A DNA stretch of 64,000 nt from a virus. Its lineage: Duplodnaviria > Caudoviricetes. Below the pieces are notes generated by a model. That model was not told the origin of the DNA. It made no database searches and saw only the letters and a list, made by a program, of their open reading frames with translations. Positions within the stretch are counted from its first letter, which is position 1, and the number at the start of each line of letters is the position of its first letter. The stretch lies in IMG/VR virus record IMGVR_UViG_3300020465_001196; one strand, 5' to 3'. A program made the translations under genes and the position numbers. Shown here piece by piece: positions 3,057 through 63,849 of this stretch.

Positions 3057-4006
3057 ATGTGCATTACTGTTATTGGTTTAGTTTGTTCTTTTAATTTCTT
3101 TTCTTCAGCACTAGGAATAGTTTTAGTTGTTTTTACTGCAACTTCTTTTAAATATTCATCTTGCAAAAGACTTTTATGTACAAAAAATCTTTCCATTTTT
3201 TTAGTATAGTGTTCCCATTTAGTACCAACATCTGTACCATCAGATAATGTAATTACAAAATCTCTTGATAAAAACCAATCATATATTTGTTGACAACTAA
3301 ATCCAAAACGTTCAGGTTGCCCATCAACCATTTCTAATTGCACAATTGGTCTTTGTGTTACTATTGTGTTTTCTGCACCCATTACTACAGGAAATTCATA
3401 ACCTTCTGTATCTATTTTAATAATATCTACATTTTCAAAATTATATGAATCTAATGTTTTAACATCTACTTTTATTTTTTCAGGTTCAACTGTTCTTCTT
3501 CTTTTCTTTCCACTTGGTAAAGGTACTTCAATATTTTCAATATGATTATGTCCTGCATTGTCTTTTTTAATTAATATTTCAAAAGATCCTGGCTTATCAC
3601 CTAATCCATTATTGTATGTATTGATGTTTCCTGTTGTTTTTAATGATGCTCCAAACTTTCCATTAAAGTTTACACTACCATTTAAGTACCATGGCTTAAC
3701 CATATTTTCATCTAATTGTGCTTTTGCTAACACAATATTTTTAAGTGCCATATTGTATGTTTGTGGAGTTGGTTCAAATCCATGCACATCTTTTGCCCAA
3801 GTGGCATATTCAATTGTGTTCATACCAATATTCATGCCAACATCAATTATTGTTTTAGCATTTGGTTTTAATTCTCTAAGTCTTAATAAGTTTTGTTTTT
3901 GGTATGGACCAGCACCTGCAATTCTTTGTTGATAAAATGCATCGTCTTTGTAAATCCAATATTGTCTACCTATTGAGTTATCTACTAGCTCTTCTGTATA
4001 GGACAT
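3053..4006 (-). CDS. FkbM-family SAM-dependent methyltransferase
   Basis: IIDVGMNIG, GFEP, IIKIDTEGYE motifs. Confidence 0.88.
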   Translation of the reverse strand: MSYTEELVDNSIGRQYWIYKDDAFYQQRIAGAGPYQKQNLLRLRELKPNAKTIIDVGMNIGMNTIEYATWAKDVHGFEPTPQTYNMALKNIVLAKAQLDENMVKPWYLNGSVNFNGKFGASLKTTGNINTYNNGLGDKPGSFEILIKKDNAGHNHIENIEVPLPSGKKRRRTVEPEKIKVDVKTLDSYNFENVDIIKIDTEGYEFPVVMGAENTIVTQRPIVQLEMVDGQPERFGFSCQQIYDWFLSRDFVITLSDGTDVGTKWEHYTKKMERFFVHKSLLQDEYLKEVAVKTTKTIPSAEEKKLKEQTKPITVMHI

Positions 4007-4089
4007 TAATTGCCTCCTTTTGTTATTGGGCGGAGCCCTTTATTAAATTACTATTATAGTAAATTTTTTTATTATTGTCAACTTTAATT

Positions 4090-17943: not shown

Positions 17944-18600
17944 TTATTTGGTTGATTGTTCATTGGTTGGTTTTTGTAAAACGAAAACTAAATTTCTTTC
18001 GTCAAACGGTTTATCTGGATCATTTTGATCAGTTAGTTGAATAGTAAAATCAGTAGCAACTAAAATGTGCCATCCTGTTCTCATCATTAATGCTCCCCAC
18101 ATTTTAACATCCATAATTGAATAATGGTTCGCAATTCTTTCTAACGGTCTATGATTATTTGGTGCAGGCATTTCAATATACATTTTTCCGCCTGGTTTAC
18201 ACACTCTAAAATATTCCATTAATGTAAAGTATGGAAACGGTGAATGTTCTAGACAATGTCTTGAAAACATAAAGTCATAACTGTTATCTTCAAACGTCAT
18301 AAAAGATTGATCCATGTTTTCACATTTAAATCCTCTTTCAATAGTTTTGTCAACATCTTCTTGACTCATTGTAATACCTTGTAAGTTTTCAAAACCAGCT
18401 TCTTTAAATTTTGTCATTGCATACCCTTGTCCACAACCAATATCTAAAATAGAGATTGATTTATCTTCACCTATTTGATTTTCTAAAAGGTCTTTTACTA
18501 CCATATCTATCATACGTGTATGCATTGGAGTATCTGGTTCAGAGTATACTTCCGTTTTAATTAATTCTAAAAATGCTTCTATTTTTTTACTGTTTTCCAT
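17944..18600 (-). CDS. Class I SAM-dependent methyltransferase
   Basis: ILDIGCGQG, FSRHCLEHSPFP; start set at MENSKK after tRNA-Gly. Confidence 0.88.
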   Translation of the reverse strand: MENSKKIEAFLELIKTEVYSEPDTPMHTRMIDMVVKDLLENQIGEDKSISILDIGCGQGYAMTKFKEAGFENLQGITMSQEDVDKTIERGFKCENMDQSFMTFEDNSYDFMFSRHCLEHSPFPYFTLMEYFRVCKPGGKMYIEMPAPNNHRPLERIANHYSIMDVKMWGALMMRTGWHILVATDFTIQLTDQNDPDKPFDERNLVFVLQKPTNEQSTK

Positions 18601-18636
18601 TTTATTTTTCTTTACATTATTATTTATACTTTTATT

Positions 18637-18711
18637 TGGAGCGGGCAGAGGGATTCGAACCCTCGACCCCTTCGTTGGCAACGAAGTGCTCTACCACTGA
18701 GCTATGCCCGC
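18637..18711 (-). tRNA. trnG: tRNA-Gly(GCC)
   Basis: GCGGGCA acceptor, anticodon arm CUUCG-UUGCCAA-CGAAG, T-arm, CCA. Confidence 0.96.
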
Positions 18712-18723
18712 CTATATTAATAT

Positions 18724-19932
18724 TTATTTGCTAAACCTGTCTTTAATTTCTTTTAAACAAGTTAGAAAATAATCAACTTCTTTTTTTGTACTATATACAC
18801 CTGTTGATATTCTACAACTACCACTCCATCCTATTTGTCTGTGTAGCATTTGTGTACAATGATGTCCTGGGCGAGTTGCAATCCCATAAGCATCTAAAAA
18901 CATTGCCATATCTTGATGATGTACTCCATCAAGGTTAAATGAAATAACAGCACTACGTTCTTTTGTGCCAATAAATTTTACTCCATCTATTTGCGACATT
19001 TTTTCATAAGCATAATCTATTACTTCTTCTTCATGCTTAATCATTTCTTCAAATCCTGTGTCAACATAAAAGTTTAATGCTTCATGTAGCCCAACAATTT
19101 CTGTTACTGCTAATGTGCCAGCTTCCCATTTCTTAGAACCTTCTGCAAAGTCAACATTATCATGATCTACTGTTGCAACTGTTCCACCACCGCCTAGTGC
19201 AGGATCTAAATTATCAATCCATTTACGTTTTGCATACATAACACCAATACCACTTGGACCATACATCTTATGTCCACTCATTGCATAAAAGTCACAATCT
19301 AAATTTTGCATATCAACTTTAATGTGTGGTGCACCTTGTGTACCATCTACTGCAACTACAATGTTATGTTTTTTAGCAATTTCACAAACACGTTTAATGT
19401 CTATTACTTGCCCTGATGTATTAGATACATGAGTAATTGCAATAATTTTCGTACGATCAGTAATTAATGATTCTATTTCTTCAATATCGATTTGATGTTG
19501 CTCATTAACTTTTAAAAACTTTATAACTGCACCATTAAACTTACGTTGTAAATGCCATGGTATATAATTCGAATGATGTTCTATTTCTGTTGTAATAATT
19601 TCATAGCCTGGTTGCATTGTTCTACCAAATGCTGTTGCAACCATATTAATTGCTTCTGTGGCTGATTTTGTAAACACTATTTCATCTGGTTCATTTGCAT
19701 TAATAAAATCTGCAACTGCTTGTCTACTTTTTTCTACCAATGCCGTTGCATGATTTGATAATTCGTGTATGCTTCTTCCAATACTTGAATATTCTTCTGT
19801 CATAAACTTATTCATTCTATCAATTACACATTGTGGTTTTTGTGAAGAATTAGCACTATCAAAGTATACCAATGGCTTACCGCTGGGTAGCATTTTGTTT
19901 AGTATCGGAAAATGTTTTCTTATATGTTCCAT
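18724..19932 (-). CDS. sufS: Cysteine desulfurase, SufS type
   Basis: VYFDSANSSQKP, EHHSN, VDGTQ, SGHKMYGPSG (PLP Lys), RPGHHC (catalytic Cys). Confidence 0.95.
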   Translation of the reverse strand: MEHIRKHFPILNKMLPSGKPLVYFDSANSSQKPQCVIDRMNKFMTEEYSSIGRSIHELSNHATALVEKSRQAVADFINANEPDEIVFTKSATEAINMVATAFGRTMQPGYEIITTEIEHHSNYIPWHLQRKFNGAVIKFLKVNEQHQIDIEEIESLITDRTKIIAITHVSNTSGQVIDIKRVCEIAKKHNIVVAVDGTQGAPHIKVDMQNLDCDFYAMSGHKMYGPSGIGVMYAKRKWIDNLDPALGGGGTVATVDHDNVDFAEGSKKWEAGTLAVTEIVGLHEALNFYVDTGFEEMIKHEEEVIDYAYEKMSQIDGVKFIGTKERSAVISFNLDGVHHQDMAMFLDAYGIATRPGHHCTQMLHRQIGWSGSCRISTGVYSTKKEVDYFLTCLKEIKDRFSK

Positions 19933-19980
19933 TGTTATTATATTTACGTCAATTTAATTGTGAATAACTTATAGTTAATT

Positions 19981-20056
19981 TGGTGGAGGATAGCGGGATC
20001 GAACCGCTGACCTCCTGAATGCAAATCAGGCGCTCTCCCAGCTGAGCTAATCCCCC
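19981..20056 (-). tRNA. trnA: tRNA-Ala(UGC)
   Basis: G3-U70 pair, anticodon loop UUUGCAU, T-arm, CCA. Confidence 0.97.
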
Positions 20057-20060
20057 ACAG

Positions 20061-20216
20061 TTAGCATAACTCATAAGCAGGATTCTGTTCATTGCTATCA
20101 TTTACCTTTGCGTCCTACCCTGTGTCCCGGCAGTTGTTGACACTCTACTTGGACTTGCACATATCTGCCTGTGTCCTGACTTTCCTCTGTTTCCAGCGAT
20201 AGCCCGGTTATGCTAA
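20061..20216 (-). ncRNA. rnpB: Minimal RNase P RNA (catalytic domain only)
   Basis: GAGGAAAGUCAGGA and AACAGAAUCCUGCUUA form P4 with bulged U; P1, P2, P3, P5, P6, P15 (GGU loop) and P16 can all be built; CR IV AGGUAAAUGA present. Confidence 0.88.
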
Positions 20217-20218
20217 TG

Positions 20219-20252
20219 TATTTACTATAATACATTTCTATAATTTTGTCAA
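20219..20252 (-). promoter_or_regulatory. Promoter for the RNase P RNA-tRNA-Ala unit
   Basis: TTGACA(20252-20247)-N17-TATAGT(20229-20224), overlapping a TAAATA at 20224-20219. Confidence 0.75.
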
Positions 20253-20255
20253 TTG

Positions 20256-20471
20256 TTATTTGCTGTGTGGCGGAAGTTTCTTTTCAACCCACCAAATGTG
20301 TTTACGTGTAATTGGATCATATTTTCTAACTCTCAATTTATCGTTTTTCTTTTCGCCTTTGGTTGGTTTTTTAGCATAATAATAATATGCATGATCTTTC
20401 ATTTTAGAATCTTCTGGTACTAATCTAACTTTTAAATATGGTTTTTTTGTTTTAGTTTTATTTTTTGCCAT
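20256..20471 (-). CDS. rpmG: 50S ribosomal protein L33, Zn-free type
   Basis: KVRLV, KLRVRKYDPITRKHIWWVEKK; no Cys. Confidence 0.88.
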   Translation of the reverse strand: MAKNKTKTKKPYLKVRLVPEDSKMKDHAYYYYAKKPTKGEKKNDKLRVRKYDPITRKHIWWVEKKLPPHSK

Positions 20472-20700
20472 TTGGTTTGTTTTTATCAGAAATCAGCTTA
20501 TCTAATTTCTTTTCAACTCGCTTGTTTAGTTTATGAACTTCTTTATTTAATTCTTCTAAATGAGCAATGTGCTTTTGAAAATCTTGTAAACTAATAGTAT
20601 GTAATAATAATTTTTCTTCTAGTTCTTTTTGTGTGATTAATTTTTTAAGATACTTTGGGTGTCTTAATAAATCTATTACGTTACTCTTTGTTTTGCTCAT
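20458..20700 (-). CDS. Hypothetical coiled-coil protein
   Basis: Coupled ORF. Confidence 0.5.
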   Translation of the reverse strand: MSKTKSNVIDLLRHPKYLKKLITQKELEEKLLLHTISLQDFQKHIAHLEELNKEVHKLNKRVEKKLDKLISDKNKPNGKK

Positions 20701-21625
20701 ATGTTCTTTTTACAACTTTGCCTATGTTTACTCTATTATACAATTTATCTCTATGGAATTGCAACCAATTTTCACCACCTAATGCAATGTGGATACAATT
20801 ACTTGGCGTTAAATTGTATGTTTCACATACTTTAGTTTGTGCTTTACTATATTTATTCCACTGATGATCTGGACCAAAATGTGTCATAAGTTCTAAACTT
20901 ATTCTAGTGTTAAGGTGGCAACCATGAGTCCAATCTGCTTGTAAAGCCAATCTATTTTTACGTTCTCCTGATGTATAATCTATTTTTCCATGCCTACTAA
21001 ACCTTATACCAGCCCTATAATCGCCGGTACACAATCCTTTGGTTGTAGAGAAAGCAACTTCTTCTATTGCTGGATGTGATAAGTCTATGTTTATATTTGC
21101 ACACGTTCCAAACCAAGCCATGTCAACAAAAACAGGCACGTTAAGATCTTGTGCGGCATCAAATATTCTATGAGTAGAATGATGCATCATTCCTGTACCA
21201 CTAAATGGACAACTTACAATAACTGCATCTCCTTTTTGCAAAGGTCTATCATCAATAAAATTAGATTGGTTATCATCAAAAAATTTATGTACATCTCTAT
21301 TATAAGGATACTCACCTCTAAACATTCTTAAAGTTCTGCCTTCTTCTAATATTCTATAATGAAACTCGTCTAAAGATTGTGTTACTCCAACTGAAGGGAA
21401 ACGATAGTTGAACGTTTCTAAACCGCGAATACAATTTAATGTACTACTACCTACCCAGTCAGGATAGTAATCAACAAATTTCTGTTGACATTGCAAATCT
21501 TCTTTTAATGCTGTATTAAAAAAGTCTTTATCGAGCAAATATGATAAAAACTCTCCATTATAAATTGAATTTCCGTTTCGCTTAAACTCTGTGTTTGATT
21601 CTGTGTATTGTGATTTTTCTACCAT
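20681..21625 (-). CDS. PLP-dependent transferase-like protein (fold type I)
   Basis: VSCPFSGTG, VFVDMAW (DxA), AFSTTKGL (SxxK), RAGIRF. Confidence 0.65.
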   Translation of the reverse strand: MVEKSQYTESNTEFKRNGNSIYNGEFLSYLLDKDFFNTALKEDLQCQQKFVDYYPDWVGSSTLNCIRGLETFNYRFPSVGVTQSLDEFHYRILEEGRTLRMFRGEYPYNRDVHKFFDDNQSNFIDDRPLQKGDAVIVSCPFSGTGMMHHSTHRIFDAAQDLNVPVFVDMAWFGTCANINIDLSHPAIEEVAFSTTKGLCTGDYRAGIRFSRHGKIDYTSGERKNRLALQADWTHGCHLNTRISLELMTHFGPDHQWNKYSKAQTKVCETYNLTPSNCIHIALGGENWLQFHRDKLYNRVNIGKVVKRTYEQNKE

Positions 21626-37136: not shown

Positions 37137-38189
37137 TTATTTATTTTTACTACCAAACCGTTTTAGAATATTATTGTAAATTTTATCTTTGCTTTTTATA
37201 CTAACAATATCAGTTGGCAAACAATTTCCGTTATACTCACACACTTCTGCATTTTGTAATAAATCCCAATCTTCATTATACGCATTACCAAGTTTATGTA
37301 CATCATAACAAGCATAACCTCTAAACATAGTTCCATCAAAATCCATCGATACACTTGTATAACCTGAATTACAATAAAACTTATAATAGTTTCTTATATT
37401 ATGCACTACTGTTCTTAATTGATCAACTAGTTCATGTTTATTGCCTTCATCATCAACCCAAATAATTGCAGGTTTATGTTGATCATTATGAGCTTCTTTC
37501 ATATATTTGATCATTTCATCATCATACAAATTATCAACCATTGTATCGTTGTTATCTCTAATATGTTTTAAAACTATTGGTACACCTATTTGCCTAATAA
37601 TTTCACTTTGCTTTGCTTGTTCCCAAAACATTTCTTTTGTCATTACTAAATTTACACTTACATTAATATTATTTTCTTTAAGAAATTTTAACTTATCAAC
37701 ATAATCATTAAATTTTTTATCTGTATTAACAAATTCTTTGTGTAATGTTGTACTAATAGTAAAATCTATATCATGTTTTTTTATAATATCAACTAATTCT
37801 TTTAAAAAATCTAACTTTCTAGAAAGATTTGTAGTTACTGATATATGTGTACTAATATCATATTTTGTAGCACCTTTTATAATATCAATTATTTCAGGAT
37901 GCCATAATGGTTCACCTCCACTATATAAAAGATCTAAAATTTTTATATTTTCTGTTTTACAATGATCAACTATTTTTTGCTGTACTTTAGATAATACTTT
38001 CCAAGGAATATAATCCATTTTATCTTTTGAATTATATCCGTCCCAACAATATGAACATTTATAATTACAATAACGAATTATATTTGATGAAAATATAAAG
38101 AAAAACTTTTTGTTAAAAAAATCTCTATGACCTATTGTGTGCAACTGCTTCATCATTACCTTTACCAATCTCTTGTTTGTATGCATCAA
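37137..38189 (-). CDS. Radical SAM protein with C-terminal auxiliary-cluster (SPASM/twitch-like) Cys
   Basis: CNYKCSYC, SGGEP, TTNLS, CNSG...GYAC...C...C. Confidence 0.88.
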   Translation of the reverse strand: MMHTNKRLVKVMMKQLHTIGHRDFFNKKFFFIFSSNIIRYCNYKCSYCWDGYNSKDKMDYIPWKVLSKVQQKIVDHCKTENIKILDLLYSGGEPLWHPEIIDIIKGATKYDISTHISVTTNLSRKLDFLKELVDIIKKHDIDFTISTTLHKEFVNTDKKFNDYVDKLKFLKENNINVSVNLVMTKEMFWEQAKQSEIIRQIGVPIVLKHIRDNNDTMVDNLYDDEMIKYMKEAHNDQHKPAIIWVDDEGNKHELVDQLRTVVHNIRNYYKFYCNSGYTSVSMDFDGTMFRGYACYDVHKLGNAYNEDWDLLQNAEVCEYNGNCLPTDIVSIKSKDKIYNNILKRFGSKNK

Positions 38190-57168: not shown

Positions 57169-58386
57169 TTATTTTTTTGAATTAATTATGTCTTCTAGTC
57201 CAGGAGCAATATCAAGGATATTTTGCTTACGTGTTTTGTCTAAATGTTCAGTATATTCAATAAATTTATCTGTATGTTGCGACCAATCTTCGTCCATCAT
57301 ATAATTTATTAAGCCTTGTACTTTTGGCTTGTCTATGTATTTTTGCAAGTCTTCTGCAACACATTCCTTTAAGTGTAATGGTAACACTCTAACATTTAAG
57401 TAATCTGGATGATCAAGTATGTTTAAATATGGAAAATAATTATACTGTTCCAAATACTTAAACAAATCAGATATATCAAGAATATTATATATTTGTACAG
57501 TAGTATGAACTTGTACTCTCATTTTACCTTCTTTTTCCATTTCATAAAATGCTGATAAGTTTTTGTGTACTGATTTCCAATTTGTTGGATATCTAATATA
57601 TCTGTTTAGTTCATCATATCCATCTATAGATGCGTTGATCTTAATCTTTTTAAAGTGTTTCCAATATTCAATCATCTTTGGTGGAATATTAGTTAAGTTG
57701 GTATTGTACTTTAAAATAATATCTTTTGCTTTGTCTAATTCAATACAACGATCAAACAATTTATATTGTTCAAGTGCAAGTGTTGGCTCACCACCTGTTA
57801 AGTATATTTCCTCTACACTATTAATAATTGGCATTAAATTTTCCCAAGTCTTTTCATTAGTGGGCCAATTCATATGTTTTAATCTTGTACGTTCTTCTTC
57901 TGGTATATCTGTTCCATCATATGATGTTGTTGTATTCCATTCTTCTGTCCATTGATTACTTGCCCATGGATTACACATTCTACATTTTAAATTACATAAA
58001 TTACCTAAACGCAAATCAACATAACCTACAGTTAAAGGAGCATTACCTTCTTTGTCTGTGTTAGAAAGTGCACCTTCTATAAAATGTGAATATGCTTCAT
58101 TAAAACTTTGTCTTGCTGATTTAATATCACTTGCTTCTTCTCTCCAACAACGTTGACACATCGTTGGCTTTTCTTCATTTAGTAACTGCAATCTTAAATC
58201 CTTATATGTTTCTGAATTCCACATTTCTTTTACATCAGAATTATAAATTTTATAAGGAGCACCAGTTTTATCTAAAATAAAATTTTTGCCAGGGGTTGAA
58301 TTACAACATACTCTATAATTTCCACTAGAATTGGTTGCTAAATGCATCCATGGTAATATACAAAATGTTTTAGACTCTTTCTTCAT
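57169..58386 (-). CDS. Radical SAM protein with N-terminal twitch-like domain
   Basis: FCILPW...RVCC...CQRC; CNLKCRMC; TGGEP; NTN; SIDG. Confidence 0.9.
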   Translation of the reverse strand: MKKESKTFCILPWMHLATNSSGNYRVCCNSTPGKNFILDKTGAPYKIYNSDVKEMWNSETYKDLRLQLLNEEKPTMCQRCWREEASDIKSARQSFNEAYSHFIEGALSNTDKEGNAPLTVGYVDLRLGNLCNLKCRMCNPWASNQWTEEWNTTTSYDGTDIPEEERTRLKHMNWPTNEKTWENLMPIINSVEEIYLTGGEPTLALEQYKLFDRCIELDKAKDIILKYNTNLTNIPPKMIEYWKHFKKIKINASIDGYDELNRYIRYPTNWKSVHKNLSAFYEMEKEGKMRVQVHTTVQIYNILDISDLFKYLEQYNYFPYLNILDHPDYLNVRVLPLHLKECVAEDLQKYIDKPKVQGLINYMMDEDWSQHTDKFIEYTEHLDKTRKQNILDIAPGLEDIINSKK

Positions 58387-59671
58387 TTACTTCCTCGAAT
58401 AGTTCTGCTAACTGCGGAACAATTTTTTTAATATCTGTTTTTCGTAAACTATCAACATCACGTGTAAACTGAACAAATTCTTTTATACGTTGCTTATTAT
58501 ATGTATCATTGCTTTGTAAATTCTTCATAATATTGCCAAATCCTATATCCCCTTGACTAAAAACTCCTTCATTTGGATTTCTATCTTGTGGCCAATATTC
58601 ACCTTGTGGCAACTCAGCATCTTTCATTATTTCATATGCTTTTAATTTTAATCTATTAGGTAATATTTGAAAATTTAAATGTGGTGGATTAACAACAACA
58701 TTTTTAAAATAAATTTCATTTGTTGGTTTACGTATTTTTAAATACCATTTCCATATATCTGATAAATTAAAAATATTATATATTTGTACTGTTACTGTAT
58801 AAATTATAACCGTGTTTGGTAATCTATTAAATTCAAGTATGTTATTTTCTAATTGTTCTATAGTGAAGTTATCTCCTCCACGTATATATTGATACAACTC
58901 TCCTGTTCCTTCTAAACTAATATGCAACTTAACTAATTTAAAATGTTTAGCAATATTCATTAATCTTTCATTCATATATGTTCCGTTAGTATTAATATCA
59001 AGCATAACATTTTTTGCAATATCCCATTCAATAAATTGTTCCATTAATTGATAATTTTGTTCTTCCATTAATGGCTCACCACCTGTTAATTTTAAAAATT
59101 GCAAATCTTTAAAATATTCTCTTTTTTCTAAAACATTTTTAATTACTTCAAAATCAACTTTTGAATATTTTCCAGTTTTACGTTCAGGCATCCAACTAGG
59201 GGTTATTTTTGCTAACTGAATTTCTTCTTTTACCCAACTACTAGAAACTTGTCCATTGCACATCCTACATTTTAAATTACATTTGTTAGATGAGTTAATT
59301 TCTAAATACCAAATATTTGGTTTATCAAATGGATTATATGTTGCTGTTTTTAAAAGTTCAGATGGTATATTTCTATAAAAGTATTGACGTCTTGAACTTC
59401 CTACTGTTTCTTCTTTTTTAATACAACTAGCACATATTTCTTTATGTGGTAATCCTGCTGTCCATGACTTACGTAAAGATTGTGCTCTAGGAGAATCCCA
59501 TAACTCTGTTAAAGTTTTTTCATATATACTTCCATATGGAGAAAATGATACAGCATCAGCATATACTAAACCATCCCATTCGATAGTTAGACTATGCCAA
59601 GGTGCTACACATTTTTTAGTGATTGTTTTGTGCCAATCCCAATCACGTTTTTTCCATTCTTGATTGTCCAT
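58370..59671 (-). CDS. Radical SAM protein with N-terminal twitch-like domain
   Basis: CVAPW...CASC; CNLKCRMC; TGGEP; NTNGT; SLEG..YQYIRGG. Confidence 0.9.
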   Translation of the reverse strand: MDNQEWKKRDWDWHKTITKKCVAPWHSLTIEWDGLVYADAVSFSPYGSIYEKTLTELWDSPRAQSLRKSWTAGLPHKEICASCIKKEETVGSSRRQYFYRNIPSELLKTATYNPFDKPNIWYLEINSSNKCNLKCRMCNGQVSSSWVKEEIQLAKITPSWMPERKTGKYSKVDFEVIKNVLEKREYFKDLQFLKLTGGEPLMEEQNYQLMEQFIEWDIAKNVMLDINTNGTYMNERLMNIAKHFKLVKLHISLEGTGELYQYIRGGDNFTIEQLENNILEFNRLPNTVIIYTVTVQIYNIFNLSDIWKWYLKIRKPTNEIYFKNVVVNPPHLNFQILPNRLKLKAYEIMKDAELPQGEYWPQDRNPNEGVFSQGDIGFGNIMKNLQSNDTYNKQRIKEFVQFTRDVDSLRKTDIKKIVPQLAELFEEVNEERV

Positions 59672-60714
59672 TAGAAATAATTTTCCTGCTCTCCTTTACG
59701 TCTTACATCTGCTGTTAAACAATGTACTCCGCCATCCCAAAAATATTGGTGTCTAAATTTCCAATATATAGGTGTTACTCCATGCTGTTCTAGTTTTGCA
59801 AATACTTCTTTATCTGTTCCTGTGCAAATAACTTTATCTTCTGATACACTTAACATATTAACATCGAATACAGTTTCATCAACATAGCCAATCCAATGTG
59901 ATAACCATTTTTCAATATAATCTTTATAAAAATGTTCTTTACGTGTTTGTTTAAAATCTTCAGGAAATTTTGTTCCTGATTCTGTTATAATACAATCCCA
60001 AGATTTTAACTTTTCTGGTATCCATGCTTTTTTCCAAGTAACAAGTAAACCTGGTTTAATTAATGCTACTTTACCATCAGCATGACCACCAACTGGTATT
60101 TCATTAAACGTAAATTCAGGTAATTGTCTTTTATACCATTTTAGTCCTTGTTCTGTACCTTTGCCTTTTATAGGATCTTTTTGATTTGATTGTGAATAAA
60201 ATATATCTTTACCACACTTTATTAAATTAGCATTATGAAAAAGTATTTCGCCTTGATTATAATAATCTTCATATGTTTTTTGATTAAGATTTGGCTTAGG
60301 CATTGATATCCATTCCGCCCCTTTATTATGATACTCTTTTAATATATGTGATGTGTTCCAATTTTCAAAATACCTTGTTCTATCTTTTGTGTATGCTTCT
60401 ATAATTTTATTACCATAAAATCCTAATATATCTCTTGGCTGTAAAGGTTGGTTTGCATATTCAATATCAAATTCACCCATATCATACTTTGCAAGTGGAT
60501 CTTGCATTACTTTAGGACGTTGTACTACTACACCTTCTTTTTGTAATATATCAACAAGTACTTCTAAATCTTCTGCTGTTTCTGTAAACACTCTTTTTAA
60601 AAGATCTTTAGCTTCTTGGTTAAAATCACTTTTATCAAAACAATCAGGTGCGTATGTATTACCTACTATAACTTCTTCTAATTGTTGAAACTCTGAATAT
60701 GCTTTTACTATCAT
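59671..60714 (-). CDS. Amidinotransferase (glycine/inosamine-phosphate amidinotransferase family)
   Basis: LEEVIVG, QPRD, HADG, FDVNMLS, WDGGVHCLTAD (catalytic Cys). Confidence 0.9.
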   Translation of the reverse strand: MIVKAYSEFQQLEEVIVGNTYAPDCFDKSDFNQEAKDLLKRVFTETAEDLEVLVDILQKEGVVVQRPKVMQDPLAKYDMGEFDIEYANQPLQPRDILGFYGNKIIEAYTKDRTRYFENWNTSHILKEYHNKGAEWISMPKPNLNQKTYEDYYNQGEILFHNANLIKCGKDIFYSQSNQKDPIKGKGTEQGLKWYKRQLPEFTFNEIPVGGHADGKVALIKPGLLVTWKKAWIPEKLKSWDCIITESGTKFPEDFKQTRKEHFYKDYIEKWLSHWIGYVDETVFDVNMLSVSEDKVICTGTDKEVFAKLEQHGVTPIYWKFRHQYFWDGGVHCLTADVRRKGEQENYF

Positions 60715-61277
60715 TTTTCAAATTCCTCACTATCATATTTGCTGTCTTTGTATCTTCTTTTTACAATAGCATCATAATATTTTTTATCCCAATTATCATA
60801 ATACTTTGTGTTCCTATGAATCCACTCTGACTTTTCATTTAAATCTGCAAGTCCTTGTATTTGTATAATTGCTAAACCTTTATTACCAGATCCTAATCCA
60901 GGAATAAGTTTATCTGTATTTTTTTCAACTCCTACAGAACCTTGTTTTTCTTCTGATTTATAAGATGTATAAATGTATAAATCATTAGCAACTGCTGTTG
61001 GTTGATTTTCATTTTCCCATTCTTCTAATTGTTCTAATGAATAATCGTTAGGGTCACCTATACACAATACCAATTGTTTTTCTTCTGGATAATTTTCAAT
61101 AGTTTCATCTGCAATTTTAAACATATCTTTTTTAACCCATTTAACTTCAACTTCATTACGTTTGAATCCCATTTTTGCAAATGGACATATAGCCATACCG
61201 TCTAATTCTTTACGTGGCTTTGTAACGTGGTCTTTCATTTCTTCCCACTTTTTATGTAGATCAGATTGTTCCGCCAT
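60711..61277 (-). CDS. Hypothetical protein with CPFAK motif
   Basis: L.GMAICPFAK...; C-terminal YYDNWDKKYY. Confidence 0.6.
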   Translation of the reverse strand: MAEQSDLHKKWEEMKDHVTKPRKELDGMAICPFAKMGFKRNEVEVKWVKKDMFKIADETIENYPEEKQLVLCIGDPNDYSLEQLEEWENENQPTAVANDLYIYTSYKSEEKQGSVGVEKNTDKLIPGLGSGNKGLAIIQIQGLADLNEKSEWIHRNTKYYDNWDKKYYDAIVKRRYKDSKYDSEEFEK

Positions 61278-62730
61278 CTTCTAATTCTTTCTCAGTTTTT
61301 TTATCAACCATTTCACCTGTGTTGACTTCAACCATATTATCTTTAGATTCATCTAGTAAGTCTGCCATCTCTGGAAATACTTTAGTAAAGTCAGTTCCTC
61401 TTTGCTTATCAAATTTTACTATGTATTCTCTAAACTGTGGCATACGTTGTGACCAATCTTCACTCATCATAAATTTGATCATGCCTTGTAATCTTTTAAT
61501 TCCGTAACTTGCTTCCATAAATGCTTCTTTGTTTGGTGCCCCTGATAATTTCCAATTGTTTAATAACCATGGATAAAATTCTTCATATTTTTGTTTTGTT
61601 TTATCTTTCATCCATTGTGGCAATGCTTTTACATTTAGATGTCCAGGCCAATATACAAAATGATAATTAATCATTCCTGCTCCAAAAGGCCATATGTTAA
61701 TTTTTTTAAAATTTTGCTCCCATTTCCATTTAATAAAATCTGGTATATAATAAATGTTTAGTGCCTGTACTGCACACGCCACAGTAACTTCAACTTTATC
61801 TTCTGTATTATCTAACAAATGAAATTGCTTAACTGTATTATCCCAGTCTGCTGGAAAACGTATATAACGATTCATTTCTTCAATTGAGTCTACACTATAA
61901 TGAAACCTTACTCTTTTAAAATGACTCCATAATTCAAATAATCTATCTGGCATTTCAACACCATTTGAATTATAACGTAATTCTATTTTGTGTGCATATC
62001 CACGTTTTATAACTTCTTCTAATAATGTATAATGTTCTTCAATAATTGTTGACTCACCACCTGCAAAGTATAACTGATACATATGAGGTATTTGTTCGTA
62101 TAACTGATCCCAAAACGTTGGATTATTTTTATGCCAGTTATATGTAGCACCATGCATTTTTCCTTTATTGTCCCATCCCATTGTTTGCTTTAATTCTTTA
62201 TTTTCAATAGTAGGGTAAACTTCTGTCCAATCTTTAATCCATAGTGATGAATCATGTGGGCTACACATAATACATTTTAAATTACATTTAGATCCCATAC
62301 GTAGATCTAAGTATCTAATTTTTGGAGGAATAGAACCATCTTTTGCTGTTTCACCAATAATTTCATCTATGTCATATCTGTTTAACCAGTATTCAGTTTC
62401 CCACATACGTTTTGAATTATGTCCTGCGTCTTCTTCTTTGTAACATTTTAAACAAGCAGGTGGTTTATCTCCGTTTAACATTTGTAAACGAACATTTTTC
62501 ATATAGTCATTATTCCATGCTTCCATTAAATTTGAATTATTTAAGTTTGCAGGTTTACCACTTTGTGTTTTTAAAACACCTACCTGACCGCCATGTTTTT
62601 TATCATTAGTTGCACCTACTGAACTTGCGTTCGCTGTACAGCATACACGCATATTACCGTCTGGTCTAGTTGATAAATGCATCCATGGTAAAGCACAAAA
62701 AGTTTTTGATGGTAGTTTATTATTGCTCAT
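61261..62730 (-). CDS. Radical SAM protein with N-terminal twitch-like domain
   Basis: FCALPWMHL...RVCC...CLKC; CNLKCIMC; AGGE; NSNG; YIRFP. Confidence 0.9.
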   Translation of the reverse strand: MSNNKLPSKTFCALPWMHLSTRPDGNMRVCCTANASSVGATNDKKHGGQVGVLKTQSGKPANLNNSNLMEAWNNDYMKNVRLQMLNGDKPPACLKCYKEEDAGHNSKRMWETEYWLNRYDIDEIIGETAKDGSIPPKIRYLDLRMGSKCNLKCIMCSPHDSSLWIKDWTEVYPTIENKELKQTMGWDNKGKMHGATYNWHKNNPTFWDQLYEQIPHMYQLYFAGGESTIIEEHYTLLEEVIKRGYAHKIELRYNSNGVEMPDRLFELWSHFKRVRFHYSVDSIEEMNRYIRFPADWDNTVKQFHLLDNTEDKVEVTVACAVQALNIYYIPDFIKWKWEQNFKKINIWPFGAGMINYHFVYWPGHLNVKALPQWMKDKTKQKYEEFYPWLLNNWKLSGAPNKEAFMEASYGIKRLQGMIKFMMSEDWSQRMPQFREYIVKFDKQRGTDFTKVFPEMADLLDESKDNMVEVNTGEMVDKKTEKELEDGGTI

Positions 62731-62739
62731 TTTATATAT

Positions 62740-63849
62740 TTACCTTGCCGTTGTAACGAAGTTATCTTCAAACTGTGCACCAAAAGGATCAAACTCTGTA
62801 CCGCATTTAACTGAACACACTTTTAATTTTCCATCTCCGCCTTCACAAGAATCTTTCTTCCAACTTGATTTTATGTTGTTAAAAAATTCTCCTTCTAGTA
62901 CTTTTTTAAATCCATGTTGTAAAACTGATAACTCATCTAAACCTCCAACCTCTTCTATAAATCTCCAAATTTGATTTTGTCCTGGCTTCTCCCACCATTT
63001 ATACATTTGTCCTGCTACCCAACAACAAGGCATTAGATGTCCTGTAGCACTAACATAAACATTCATATCTTTTAATACTTTACAATTAATTCTTGCTTGG
63101 TTGTAATACTCATCCATAGAACCATATTTTTCTACAAGTGGATCTAATTTTTTAAGAGCTTTATTTACATACTTTTCATCTGGCTTTGTTAGTTTTTGTG
63201 TTTCTTTACCTTTACGGTTTACACCTTGGTGTTCTTCTTTACCTTTTGCTTTTACATTACTAAAAAACCTACCAGTTTTTTTACTCATAAATTTTTCAAA
63301 TCCCATACGTTTCGATAATGCTTCTGCTTCTTCTACTTGATGTTGATTATGACCAAATATTAAATAATCCCATCTTGCTCTACCACCAGCATCAATAAAT
63401 GCTTGTGATGAATCCATACATATATCCCAATTAACATTTTGTCTATATAAATGGTTAGTATCTTTTAATCCGTCAAAACTAAAAATAACATGACCTTTAC
63501 GTCCTATTACTTTTGCAAGTTCACGCCACCATTCAGGTTTTTTAGCACCAGCATTTGTGTTCATGCTTAACCATATATTTGAATTTTGTTTTCGTAAATA
63601 TTCCATTACTTCTAATGAATCTTTAGCCACTACAGGATCTCCTAAATTACCACACATAAACAAACTATCTAATTGTTTTACTAAATCAGGTGTAAAAATT
63701 TTTTTACAATCCTCAAGTGATAGCTCATCTAAGTTTATATTAGGATTAAGTTCTCCACCATTTATATTACGATCACATTGCAAACAAGCGGCTTGGCATT
63801 TTGCAGTGATTTCTAAGTGGACTGTTCTTATGTCGCTGTACCTGTACAT
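62740..63849 (-). CDS. Radical SAM protein, paralog of 49696..50709
   Basis: CQAACLQC, CGNLGDP, NTNAG, FSFDG; CKV...MPCC...CSVKC. Confidence 0.9.
   Translation of the reverse strand: MYRYSDIRTVHLEITAKCQAACLQCDRNINGGELNPNINLDELSLEDCKKIFTPDLVKQLDSLFMCGNLGDPVVAKDSLEVMEYLRKQNSNIWLSMNTNAGAKKPEWWRELAKVIGRKGHVIFSFDGLKDTNHLYRQNVNWDICMDSSQAFIDAGGRARWDYLIFGHNQHQVEEAEALSKRMGFEKFMSKKTGRFFSNVKAKGKEEHQGVNRKGKETQKLTKPDEKYVNKALKKLDPLVEKYGSMDEYYNQARINCKVLKDMNVYVSATGHLMPCCWVAGQMYKWWEKPGQNQIWRFIEEVGGLDELSVLQHGFKKVLEGEFFNNIKSSWKKDSCEGGDGKLKVCSVKCGTEFDPFGAQFEDNFVTTAR

Follow-up and report, generated by a model that had tools for sequence, protein, structure and literature searches.

A miniature RNase P RNA gene directly precedes tRNA-Ala in a huge marine phage, where a single cut may form both adjoining ends

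The window, i.e., the whole 64,000-nt stretch of DNA analysed here (IMG/VR record IMGVR_UViG_3300020465_001196), belongs to a huge marine phage. On its minus strand, a bL33-like gene ends at its stop codon and is followed by a promoter, a miniature RNase P RNA (P RNA), the linker CUGU, tRNA-Ala(UGC) and a sufS-like gene (Table 1). The bL33-like stop codon is 3 nt ahead of the -35 hexamer, seven bases separate the -10 hexamer from the 5' strand of P1, and the transcription start predicted from the sequence (~20217/20216) coincides with the first base of P1. The ribozyme and pre-tRNA genes are 4 nt apart, with a single promoter and no intervening terminator. A scan of 18600-20800 revealed no terminator-like sites, so none lies between P RNA and tRNA or after the tRNA, and no promoter-like sites were found between 20224 and 19964, a separate tRNA promoter inside the P RNA included. 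The first-pass annotation of this locus had described a TTGACA-N17-TATAGT promoter with an overlapping TAAATA and a start near 20216, a P1 helix closing at 20061 and followed by CUGU and then G1 of tRNA-Ala at 20056, and the absence of a terminator between the two genes, all of which were present on reading the sequence, its coordinates and the scan. Its further suggestion that dual promoters serve early and late expression is unsupported. TAAATA is a common hexamer that is restricted to the Ala clade of the family described below and missing from its Ser, Asp, Gln and Arg groups, and we rejected it as a late promoter; the window contains it 84 times, whereas shuffles predict 155, so that it is rarer than chance and uninformative.

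Table 1 Features of the P RNA-tRNA-Ala locus and helices of the P RNA, in window coordinates.
Feature	Position	Strand	Remarks
bL33-like ribosomal protein gene	20471-20256	(-)	Pfam PF00471, 33.5 bits
Sigma-70-type promoter	20252-20224	(-)	TTGACA 20252-20247, 17-nt spacer, TATAGT 20229-20224; 11/12 matches
TAAATA hexamer	20224-20219	(-)	overlaps -10 hexamer
Mini RNase P RNA	20216-20061	(-)	156 nt, catalytic domain only; RF00010 match and covariation
P1	20216-20207/20070-20061	(-)	
P2	20203-20198/20099-20094	(-)	
P3 hairpin	20196-20187	(-)	
CR-I core GAGGAAAGUC (J3/4 and start of P4)	20187-20178	(-)	invariant, 23/23 sequences
P4	20182-20175/20081-20075	(-)	bulged U at 20179
P5	20173-20170/20161-20158	(-)	
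P6 pseudoknot	20169-20165/20133-20129	(-)	8-nt loop with P16/17 loop
P15	20154-20151/20115-20112	(-)	
P16	20143-20139/20126-20122	(-)	
L15 loop GGGUA	20120-20116	(-)	invariant in family alignment
CR-V ACAGAAnnCnGCUUA: ACAGAA, P4 3' strand, GCUUA	20088-20074	(-)	invariant, 23/23 sequences
Linker CUGU	20060-20057	(-)	pre-tRNA leader positions -4 to -1
tRNA-Ala(UGC), 3' CCA encoded	20056-19981	(-)	ARAGORN; RF00005 65.9 bits
Second promoter-like site TTCACA-16-TATAAT	19964-19937	(-)	between tRNA-Ala and sufS
sufS-like ORF	19932-18724	(-)	Pfam Aminotran_5, 6e-130

The window has 32% G+C and nearly all of its genes share one strand. They include a T4-type ATP-dependent DNA ligase (phrog_114), a tail-fibre-like protein, SufS, a porin and many radical-SAM proteins; five radical-SAM genes, several with SPASM, occupy 57169-63849 and 37137-38189, four of them consecutive at the window end. 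Six tRNAs (Trp, Gly, Ala, Thr, Asn, Glu; 16365-56877) stand singly, dispersed among protein genes of the same strand, with CCA encoded. No close relatives were found among cultured phages, and blastn of the P RNA-tRNA unit against the cultured-phage collection gave no match. A close relative, the IMG/VR record IMGVR_UViG_3300020477_000990 (G001; 328 kb, rated complete), holds exactly one mini P RNA gene and 15 distinct tRNAs scattered genome-wide, and neither a full-length rnpB nor an rnpA was found in its complete 328 kb. No phage protein partner for the P RNA was found. The G001 record opens exactly at the P RNA-tRNA unit, the 'direct terminal repeat' at 1-73 and 328075-328147 being the fused tRNA-Ala, and this repeat is probably an assembly overlap at the conserved tRNA.

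Relatives whose P RNA is joined to tRNA-Ser encode, at L003:10556-10892 and L005:2657-2992, a two-piece (permuted) tmRNA of alphaproteobacterial type, whose tag is ADENLALAA and which lies some 1.5 kb ahead of the P RNA-tRNA-Ser unit. Because related contigs carry this tmRNA, we infer that the hosts are marine alphaproteobacteria. Near the P RNA-tRNA unit, the related phages also have host-like genes of an unusual kind, including a CtaG/Cox11 gene (L003:11943-12404), genes for a SET-domain protein and for an FTR1 iron permease (L006:403-1813), and a full cytochrome b gene among tRNAs (L004:6160-7428).

Infernal matched 20215-20058 to the RNase P RNA model RF00010 end to end (model positions 1-367) at 71 bits (E = 1.9e-21). 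The gathering score of RF00010 is 100 bits, and the window (71 bits) and its relatives (70-78 bits) fall below it, with only one divergent member, L042, above (106.8 bits); since the score is below the Rfam threshold, standard annotation misses the mini P RNA gene. Consistent with the missing specificity domain (S-domain) noted in the first-pass annotation, 158 model positions (P7-P14, CR-II/CR-III, the T-loop-reading part) are replaced by 8 nt in the RF00010 alignment. P18 is likewise absent, P3 is a 3-bp GAAA hairpin and the catalytic core is complete. In bacterial RNase P, the GGU of L15 pairs with the 3'-CCA of the tRNA, and the encoding of CCA in every tRNA of the window and in every fused tRNA of the family would fit an enzyme that relies on this pairing. 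Binding of host RnpA to the P RNA is uncertain because P3 is cut to 3 bp.

We searched IMG/VR, metagenomes and genomes for CR-I and CR-V spaced only 60-120 nt apart, a distance that is roughly 250-300 nt in a full-length RNase P RNA gene. The pattern scans yielded 8 IMG/VR, 29 metagenome and 7 genome loci, and a narrower-gap pattern, N{30,59}, had no matches among cultured phages. Two loci (L036 and L037) turned out to be ordinary full-length rnpB genes, i.e., false positives of the pattern, and a match containing a run of N (L038) was discarded. The resulting family comprises 23 distinct sequences of 155-164 nt, namely the window and 22 further ones from IMG/VR and metagenomes, the divergent member L042 being 189 nt long. 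In one Ser-group sequence (L009:1249-1420), an 8-nt insertion stands beside the P3 hairpin and the remaining RNA is unchanged.

Covariation was scored on the 23-sequence alignment against a hand-drawn structure made up of P1, P2, P3, the P4 pseudoknot, P5, the P6 pseudoknot, P15 and P16. Across the 23 sequences, 94.9% of the cells were paired, compared with 31-40% when partners were slid by 1-3 columns; 29/44 pairs changed on both sides, and none of 500 shuffles reached the observed covariation values. The catalytic-domain (C-domain) helices P1, P2, P3, P5, P6, P15 and P16 are backed by covariation. The seven pairs of P4 are 100% paired and, like its bulged U, invariant; where the bacterial consensus has CCGG/CCGG, P4 reads CAGG/CCUG, both sides being altered. 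Together, the covariation and the invariant CR-I, CR-V, P4 bulged U and L15 GGGUA indicate a selected RNA with the architecture of the RNase P catalytic domain.

Alternatively, the RNA could be a decoy, a non-enzymatic transcript that soaks up host RnpA or otherwise disturbs host tRNA maturation. The lack of an S-domain, the tiny P3 and the absence of rnpA from the phage (G001) would suit this role, which has a viral precedent, a decoy function having been proposed for a camelpox RNase P-like RNA (PMC3001073). However, elements on the substrate side that would be of no use to a protein decoy (L15 GGGUA, P6, P15/P16, J5/15 CAAG, the P4 bulged U and CR-V) are invariant or covarying; moreover, the carrier phages are tRNA-rich. 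We therefore hold a decoy to be very unlikely.

A tRNA begins 0-7 nt after the last P1 pair, and 10-23 nt past the GCTTA of CR-V, in all 22 loci with enough downstream DNA. Because a tRNA follows in 22/22 related loci, we consider the arrangement to be far beyond chance. The fused tRNA is Ala(UGC) in 6 distinct sequences, Ser(UGA) in 8, Asp(GUC) in 2, Gln(UUG) in 6 and Arg(UCU) in 1, and CCA is encoded in all of them. Between the Ala, Ser and Asp groups, P RNA identity is still 82-83%. Ala and Asp units directly precede orthologous sufS genes (61% identity), and upstream of these units stand bL33 in Ala, where it is the neighbour in that clade only, and sufB-sufC in Asp (order sufB-sufC-[P RNA-tRNA-Asp]-sufS at L001:7533-11231). 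Since both units precede orthologous sufS, the tRNA was exchanged with the junction kept. The Gln-group ribozyme stands first in a Gln-Asp-Cys cluster whose spacers measure 1 nt, and L042 has a tRNA on both sides and no promoter. The promoter is kept in 22 of the 23 members, with 9-12 of 12 matches and a spacer of always 17 nt, and in 22 of the 23 P1 starts 4-7 nt past the -10 hexamer.

At the level of DNA only, 22/22 loci have a tRNA directly flanking the P RNA in what would be a shared transcription unit. Adjacency in homologous loci, which the first-pass annotation had named as a check on its reading, is conserved over five tRNA types and recurs in the cultured phage DLP6, and its proposal that one cut at the tRNA +1 site creates both the 5' end of the tRNA and the 3' end of the ribozyme is supported by this comparison of adjacency and promoter. 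Because promoter and junction are both conserved, the 5' end of the P RNA would be set by initiation and its 3' end by the tRNA. A single promoter-driven, co-transcribed unit of P RNA and tRNA, in which one cut would make two ends, is in our view well supported by the sequence comparison.

The same layout was observed outside the family. In Stenotrophomonas phage DLP6, positions 105774-106022 of KU682439.2 match RF00010 at 54.7 bits in a whole-record search; local cmscan made no RF00010 call, and P1, P4, CR-I and CR-V were confirmed by sequence reading. P1 (UUUGCAAGCC/GGCUUGCAAA) is followed by a 7-nt linker and an annotated tRNA-Arg(CCG) at 106026. This reduced P RNA of ~250 nt (L046:1501-1752, KU682439.2 105774-106025) is unannotated, lies between a hypothetical CDS and the tRNA, and has variant motifs (CR-I, GAGGAAGUUC; CR-V, GGCUAC). 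Three scans of IMG/VR recovered 39 other loci with larger reduced P RNAs, among which a tRNA stands directly after P1 in 16 and 60-92 nt off in 4; the other 19 have no close downstream tRNA, eight of them containing no more than a single tRNA in the whole locus.

S-domain-less P RNAs that stand alone, with their own promoter and a T-run/hairpin terminator, form further classes (L015, L041 and the GC-rich L007, L008, L026 and L030). Five of them (L015:825-991(-), L041:1906-2051(+), L007:450-601(-), L030:2350-2500(-) and L026:7579-7729(-)) are 146-167 nt long, range from 38% to 71% G+C and lie in tRNA-free loci; L015 and L041 are each bracketed by a promoter of their own and a T-run or hairpin terminator. 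A GC-rich 8-kb metagenome contig without tRNA carries two mini P-like RNAs 1.5 kb apart (L008:2304-2469(+) and 3924-4079(+)). In an Elusimicrobia MAG, a 177-nt mini P RNA (L040:3931-4107(-)) sits in a tRNA cluster, with Asn upstream and Gly, Gly and Thr downstream, and the same MAG carries a full-length rnpB on another contig (G007:C32:47236-47672). Because S-domain-less RNAs stand alone with their own promoter and terminator, tRNA fusion, which is frequent in phages and universal in the family of the window, is not a general need of an S-domain-less P RNA.

These surveys also bear on whether the adjacency has any selected function at all. P RNA genes might simply dwell in tRNA clusters, or travel with a tRNA cassette, and show the usual cluster spacing, a reading favoured by the fact that tRNA clusters house the majority of the other mini P RNAs of phages, frequently with an upstream tRNA too, by the tightly spaced cluster of the Gln group and by the 19/39 other phage P RNAs that lack a near downstream tRNA. 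In the Ala, Ser and Asp lineages, however, the fused tRNA is solitary and the other phage tRNAs are dispersed; the upstream genes vary (bL33, SufC, CtaG or SET protein) but the junction is kept in 22/22 loci, and the tRNA has been swapped in place ahead of sufS. Moreover, since every tRNA needs an RNase P cut at +1, the 3' end of the ribozyme would be made there in any case. Adjacency without selected function thus strikes us as distinctly improbable.

Sequences of the unit also occur in RNA libraries. Marine metatranscriptome contigs match the window exactly at 20052-20178, passing the junction by 5 nt only, and further exact-match contigs cover 20149-20267, which spans the promoter, and 19789-19995. 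Ser-type metatranscriptome contigs run from P RNA through the linker into tRNA-Ser. Because the contigs are assembled and also cross the promoter, RNA ends and transcription are not derivable from them; what they establish is the occurrence of the sequence in RNA libraries, where precursor RNA is indistinguishable from DNA carry-over or upstream read-through.

Starting from the sequence anatomy, the covarying fold and the conserved promoter and adjacency, we propose the following scheme. Host RNA polymerase would initiate at the consensus sigma-70 promoter, on the first base of P1, and make the 156-nt catalytic-domain RNA and the tRNA as one precursor, possibly reading on into sufS, so that the ribozyme itself would be the 5' leader of the tRNA. 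RNase P would then cleave at the tRNA +1 site in trans, the agent being the host holoenzyme first and the matured phage ribozyme later. This cut would free a ribozyme with a 3' tail of 0-7 nt along with a 5'-mature tRNA, the tRNA acting as the ribozyme's 3'-end signal instead of a terminator. The freed ribozyme, probably with host RnpA, would go on to trim the dispersed CCA-bearing phage pre-tRNAs through L15 GGU-CCA pairing. The parts that we infer are that P RNA and tRNA are transcribed together, where the precursor is cut and by what, that the RNA is catalytically active and that it employs host RnpA, and we judge the scheme as a whole, from single precursor to action on the phage pre-tRNAs, to be reasonably probable.

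Alternatively, the precursor could be a natural self-cleaving RNase P-tRNA conjugate in which the tethered tRNA docks in the active site of its own ribozyme, the first turnover is intramolecular and the tether offsets the lost S-domain, as the gene layout might suggest, enzyme and substrate being always joined by a very short linker and the CCA-binding GGU and the encoded CCA being both kept. In an engineered archaeal conjugate, S-domain loss costs 12-fold in cis, compared with ~25,000-fold in trans (PMC2475606); the latter defect is the one cited there for the isolated C-domain of B. subtilis in trans in vitro, and such poor activity of isolated C-domains would count against cleavage in trans. 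However, the working conjugates tie the 3' end of the tRNA to L15 by 3-5 nt, a tether that is absent here. The link in the phage unit connects the P1 3' end with the tRNA 5' leader. In the only published test of such a topology, two archaeal RNase P RNAs (Afu, Mja) carrying a pre-tRNA at their 3' end gave no self-cleavage, whereas L15 tethers worked (PMC2475606). Geometry points the same way, as P1 stacks on P4 and its outer end would lie 7-16 bp from the active site, to be bridged by a linker of 0-7 nt whose length shows no clear scaling with that of P1. Self-cleavage also sits poorly with the existence of S-domain-less relatives without an attached tRNA, with a tRNA fusion in just 16/39 other phage mini P RNAs and with the ability of host RNase P to make the cut anyway. 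We therefore disfavour cis cleavage with the tether in place of the S-domain, and regard it as unlikely.

Cleavage in trans is favoured, besides the failure of 3'-end tethers and the distance from P1 to the active site, because an engineered counterpart, the E. coli C-domain, is trans-active, needing P6-type pairing and dispensing with P18 (PMC5839562). It is also favoured because structure in the leader is tolerated beyond -5, cryo-EM of ribozyme and pre-tRNA showing only positions -1 to -5 of the leader to be held (PMC13254310), which would fit the P1 helix starting at -5, and because T4-type dimeric precursors with spacers of <5 nt are ordinary RNase P substrates (review PMC11143913). Finally, the phage's other tRNAs, 15 dispersed ones in G001, could be served in trans only.

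In full-text literature searches covering RNase P RNAs of phages and viruses as well as minimal RNase P, we came across no account of an RNase P RNA encoded by a phage, nor of RNase P RNA and tRNA naturally fused in a bacterium or phage, the DLP6 layout included. RNase P is the textbook trans-acting ribozyme and is treated as a cellular or organellar gene. New here are the minimal P RNA architecture, its phage carrier and a gene layout in which the enzyme 3' end would be set by the substrate. Cut to its catalytic half, the phage RNA would be about the smallest bacterial-type RNase P RNA, and as the helices it retains are exactly those shown by deletion studies to be required in an S-domain-less enzyme, it may offer an evolved minimal scaffold for structures and M1GS-type tools. 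With a promoter at P1 and a 3' end supplied by the tRNA, a virus could express a ribozyme without a terminator or dedicated processing signals. The fused substrate gives direct experimental access to a long-standing question, whether tethering can replace the specificity domain; self-cleavage, if true, would represent the first known natural cis-acting RNase P, with tethering replacing the specificity domain in nature. The cultured phage DLP6, with its P RNA-tRNA layout, provides a ready experimental system.

Among known RNAs, the phage P RNA shares CR-I, CR-IV, CR-V, P1-P6 and P15/16 with the bacterial type A RNase P RNA (RF00010; E. coli M1 RNA, rnpB), along with the P4 pseudoknot with its bulged U and the CCA-pairing L15 GGU. 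However, the type A RNA measures about 350-400 nt against the 156 nt of the phage RNA, which swaps the S-domain (P7-P14) for an 8-nt loop that still forms P6, has no P18 and only a 3-bp P3, ends at a tRNA rather than a terminator, and is phage-encoded without a phage rnpA. Another reduced form, the type T RNase P RNA, is about 200 nt long. As far as described in PMC3579882, type T RNA of the Thermoproteaceae (Pyrobaculum) is natural and has lost most of the S-domain, but, unlike the phage RNA, it is archaeal, an essential cellular gene, served by archaeal proteins and without tRNA fusion.

With respect to the junction, T4 dimeric tRNA precursors and multimeric bacterial transcripts likewise have a structured RNA <5 nt upstream that is freed by RNase P cleavage at +1 (PMC11143913). 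The upstream partner is a tRNA in the T4 dimers, whereas in the phage unit it is a ribozyme. Enzyme and substrate have been combined in one molecule before, and Kikuchi et al. 1993 reportedly made artificial self-cleaving M1-pre-tRNA molecules. Self-cleaving pre-tRNA-RNase P RNA conjugates were described by Frank, Harris and Pace 1994 (as cited in PMC2475606), and in the conjugates of Pulukkunat and Gopalan 2008 (PMC2475606) S-domain loss was tolerated in cis; these conjugates tie the tRNA 3' end to L15, whereas the phage layout ties the ribozyme 3' end to the tRNA 5' leader.

The yeast mitochondrial RPM1, in its tRNA-fMet/RPM1/tRNA-Pro unit, is a P RNA co-transcribed with tRNAs and matured via tRNA-type processing (PMC3797045), and mitochondrial P RNAs can be strongly reduced, to ~150 nt in Saccharomycopsis fibuligera (PMC3790967). 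RPM1 differs in being organellar, A/U-rich and Rpm2p-dependent, whereas the phage RNA has a bacterial-type core, a sigma-70 promoter at P1 and a 0-7 nt linker. [quoted passage not shown] 2018, PMC5839562), but the phage RNA is natural, conserved and fused to a substrate.
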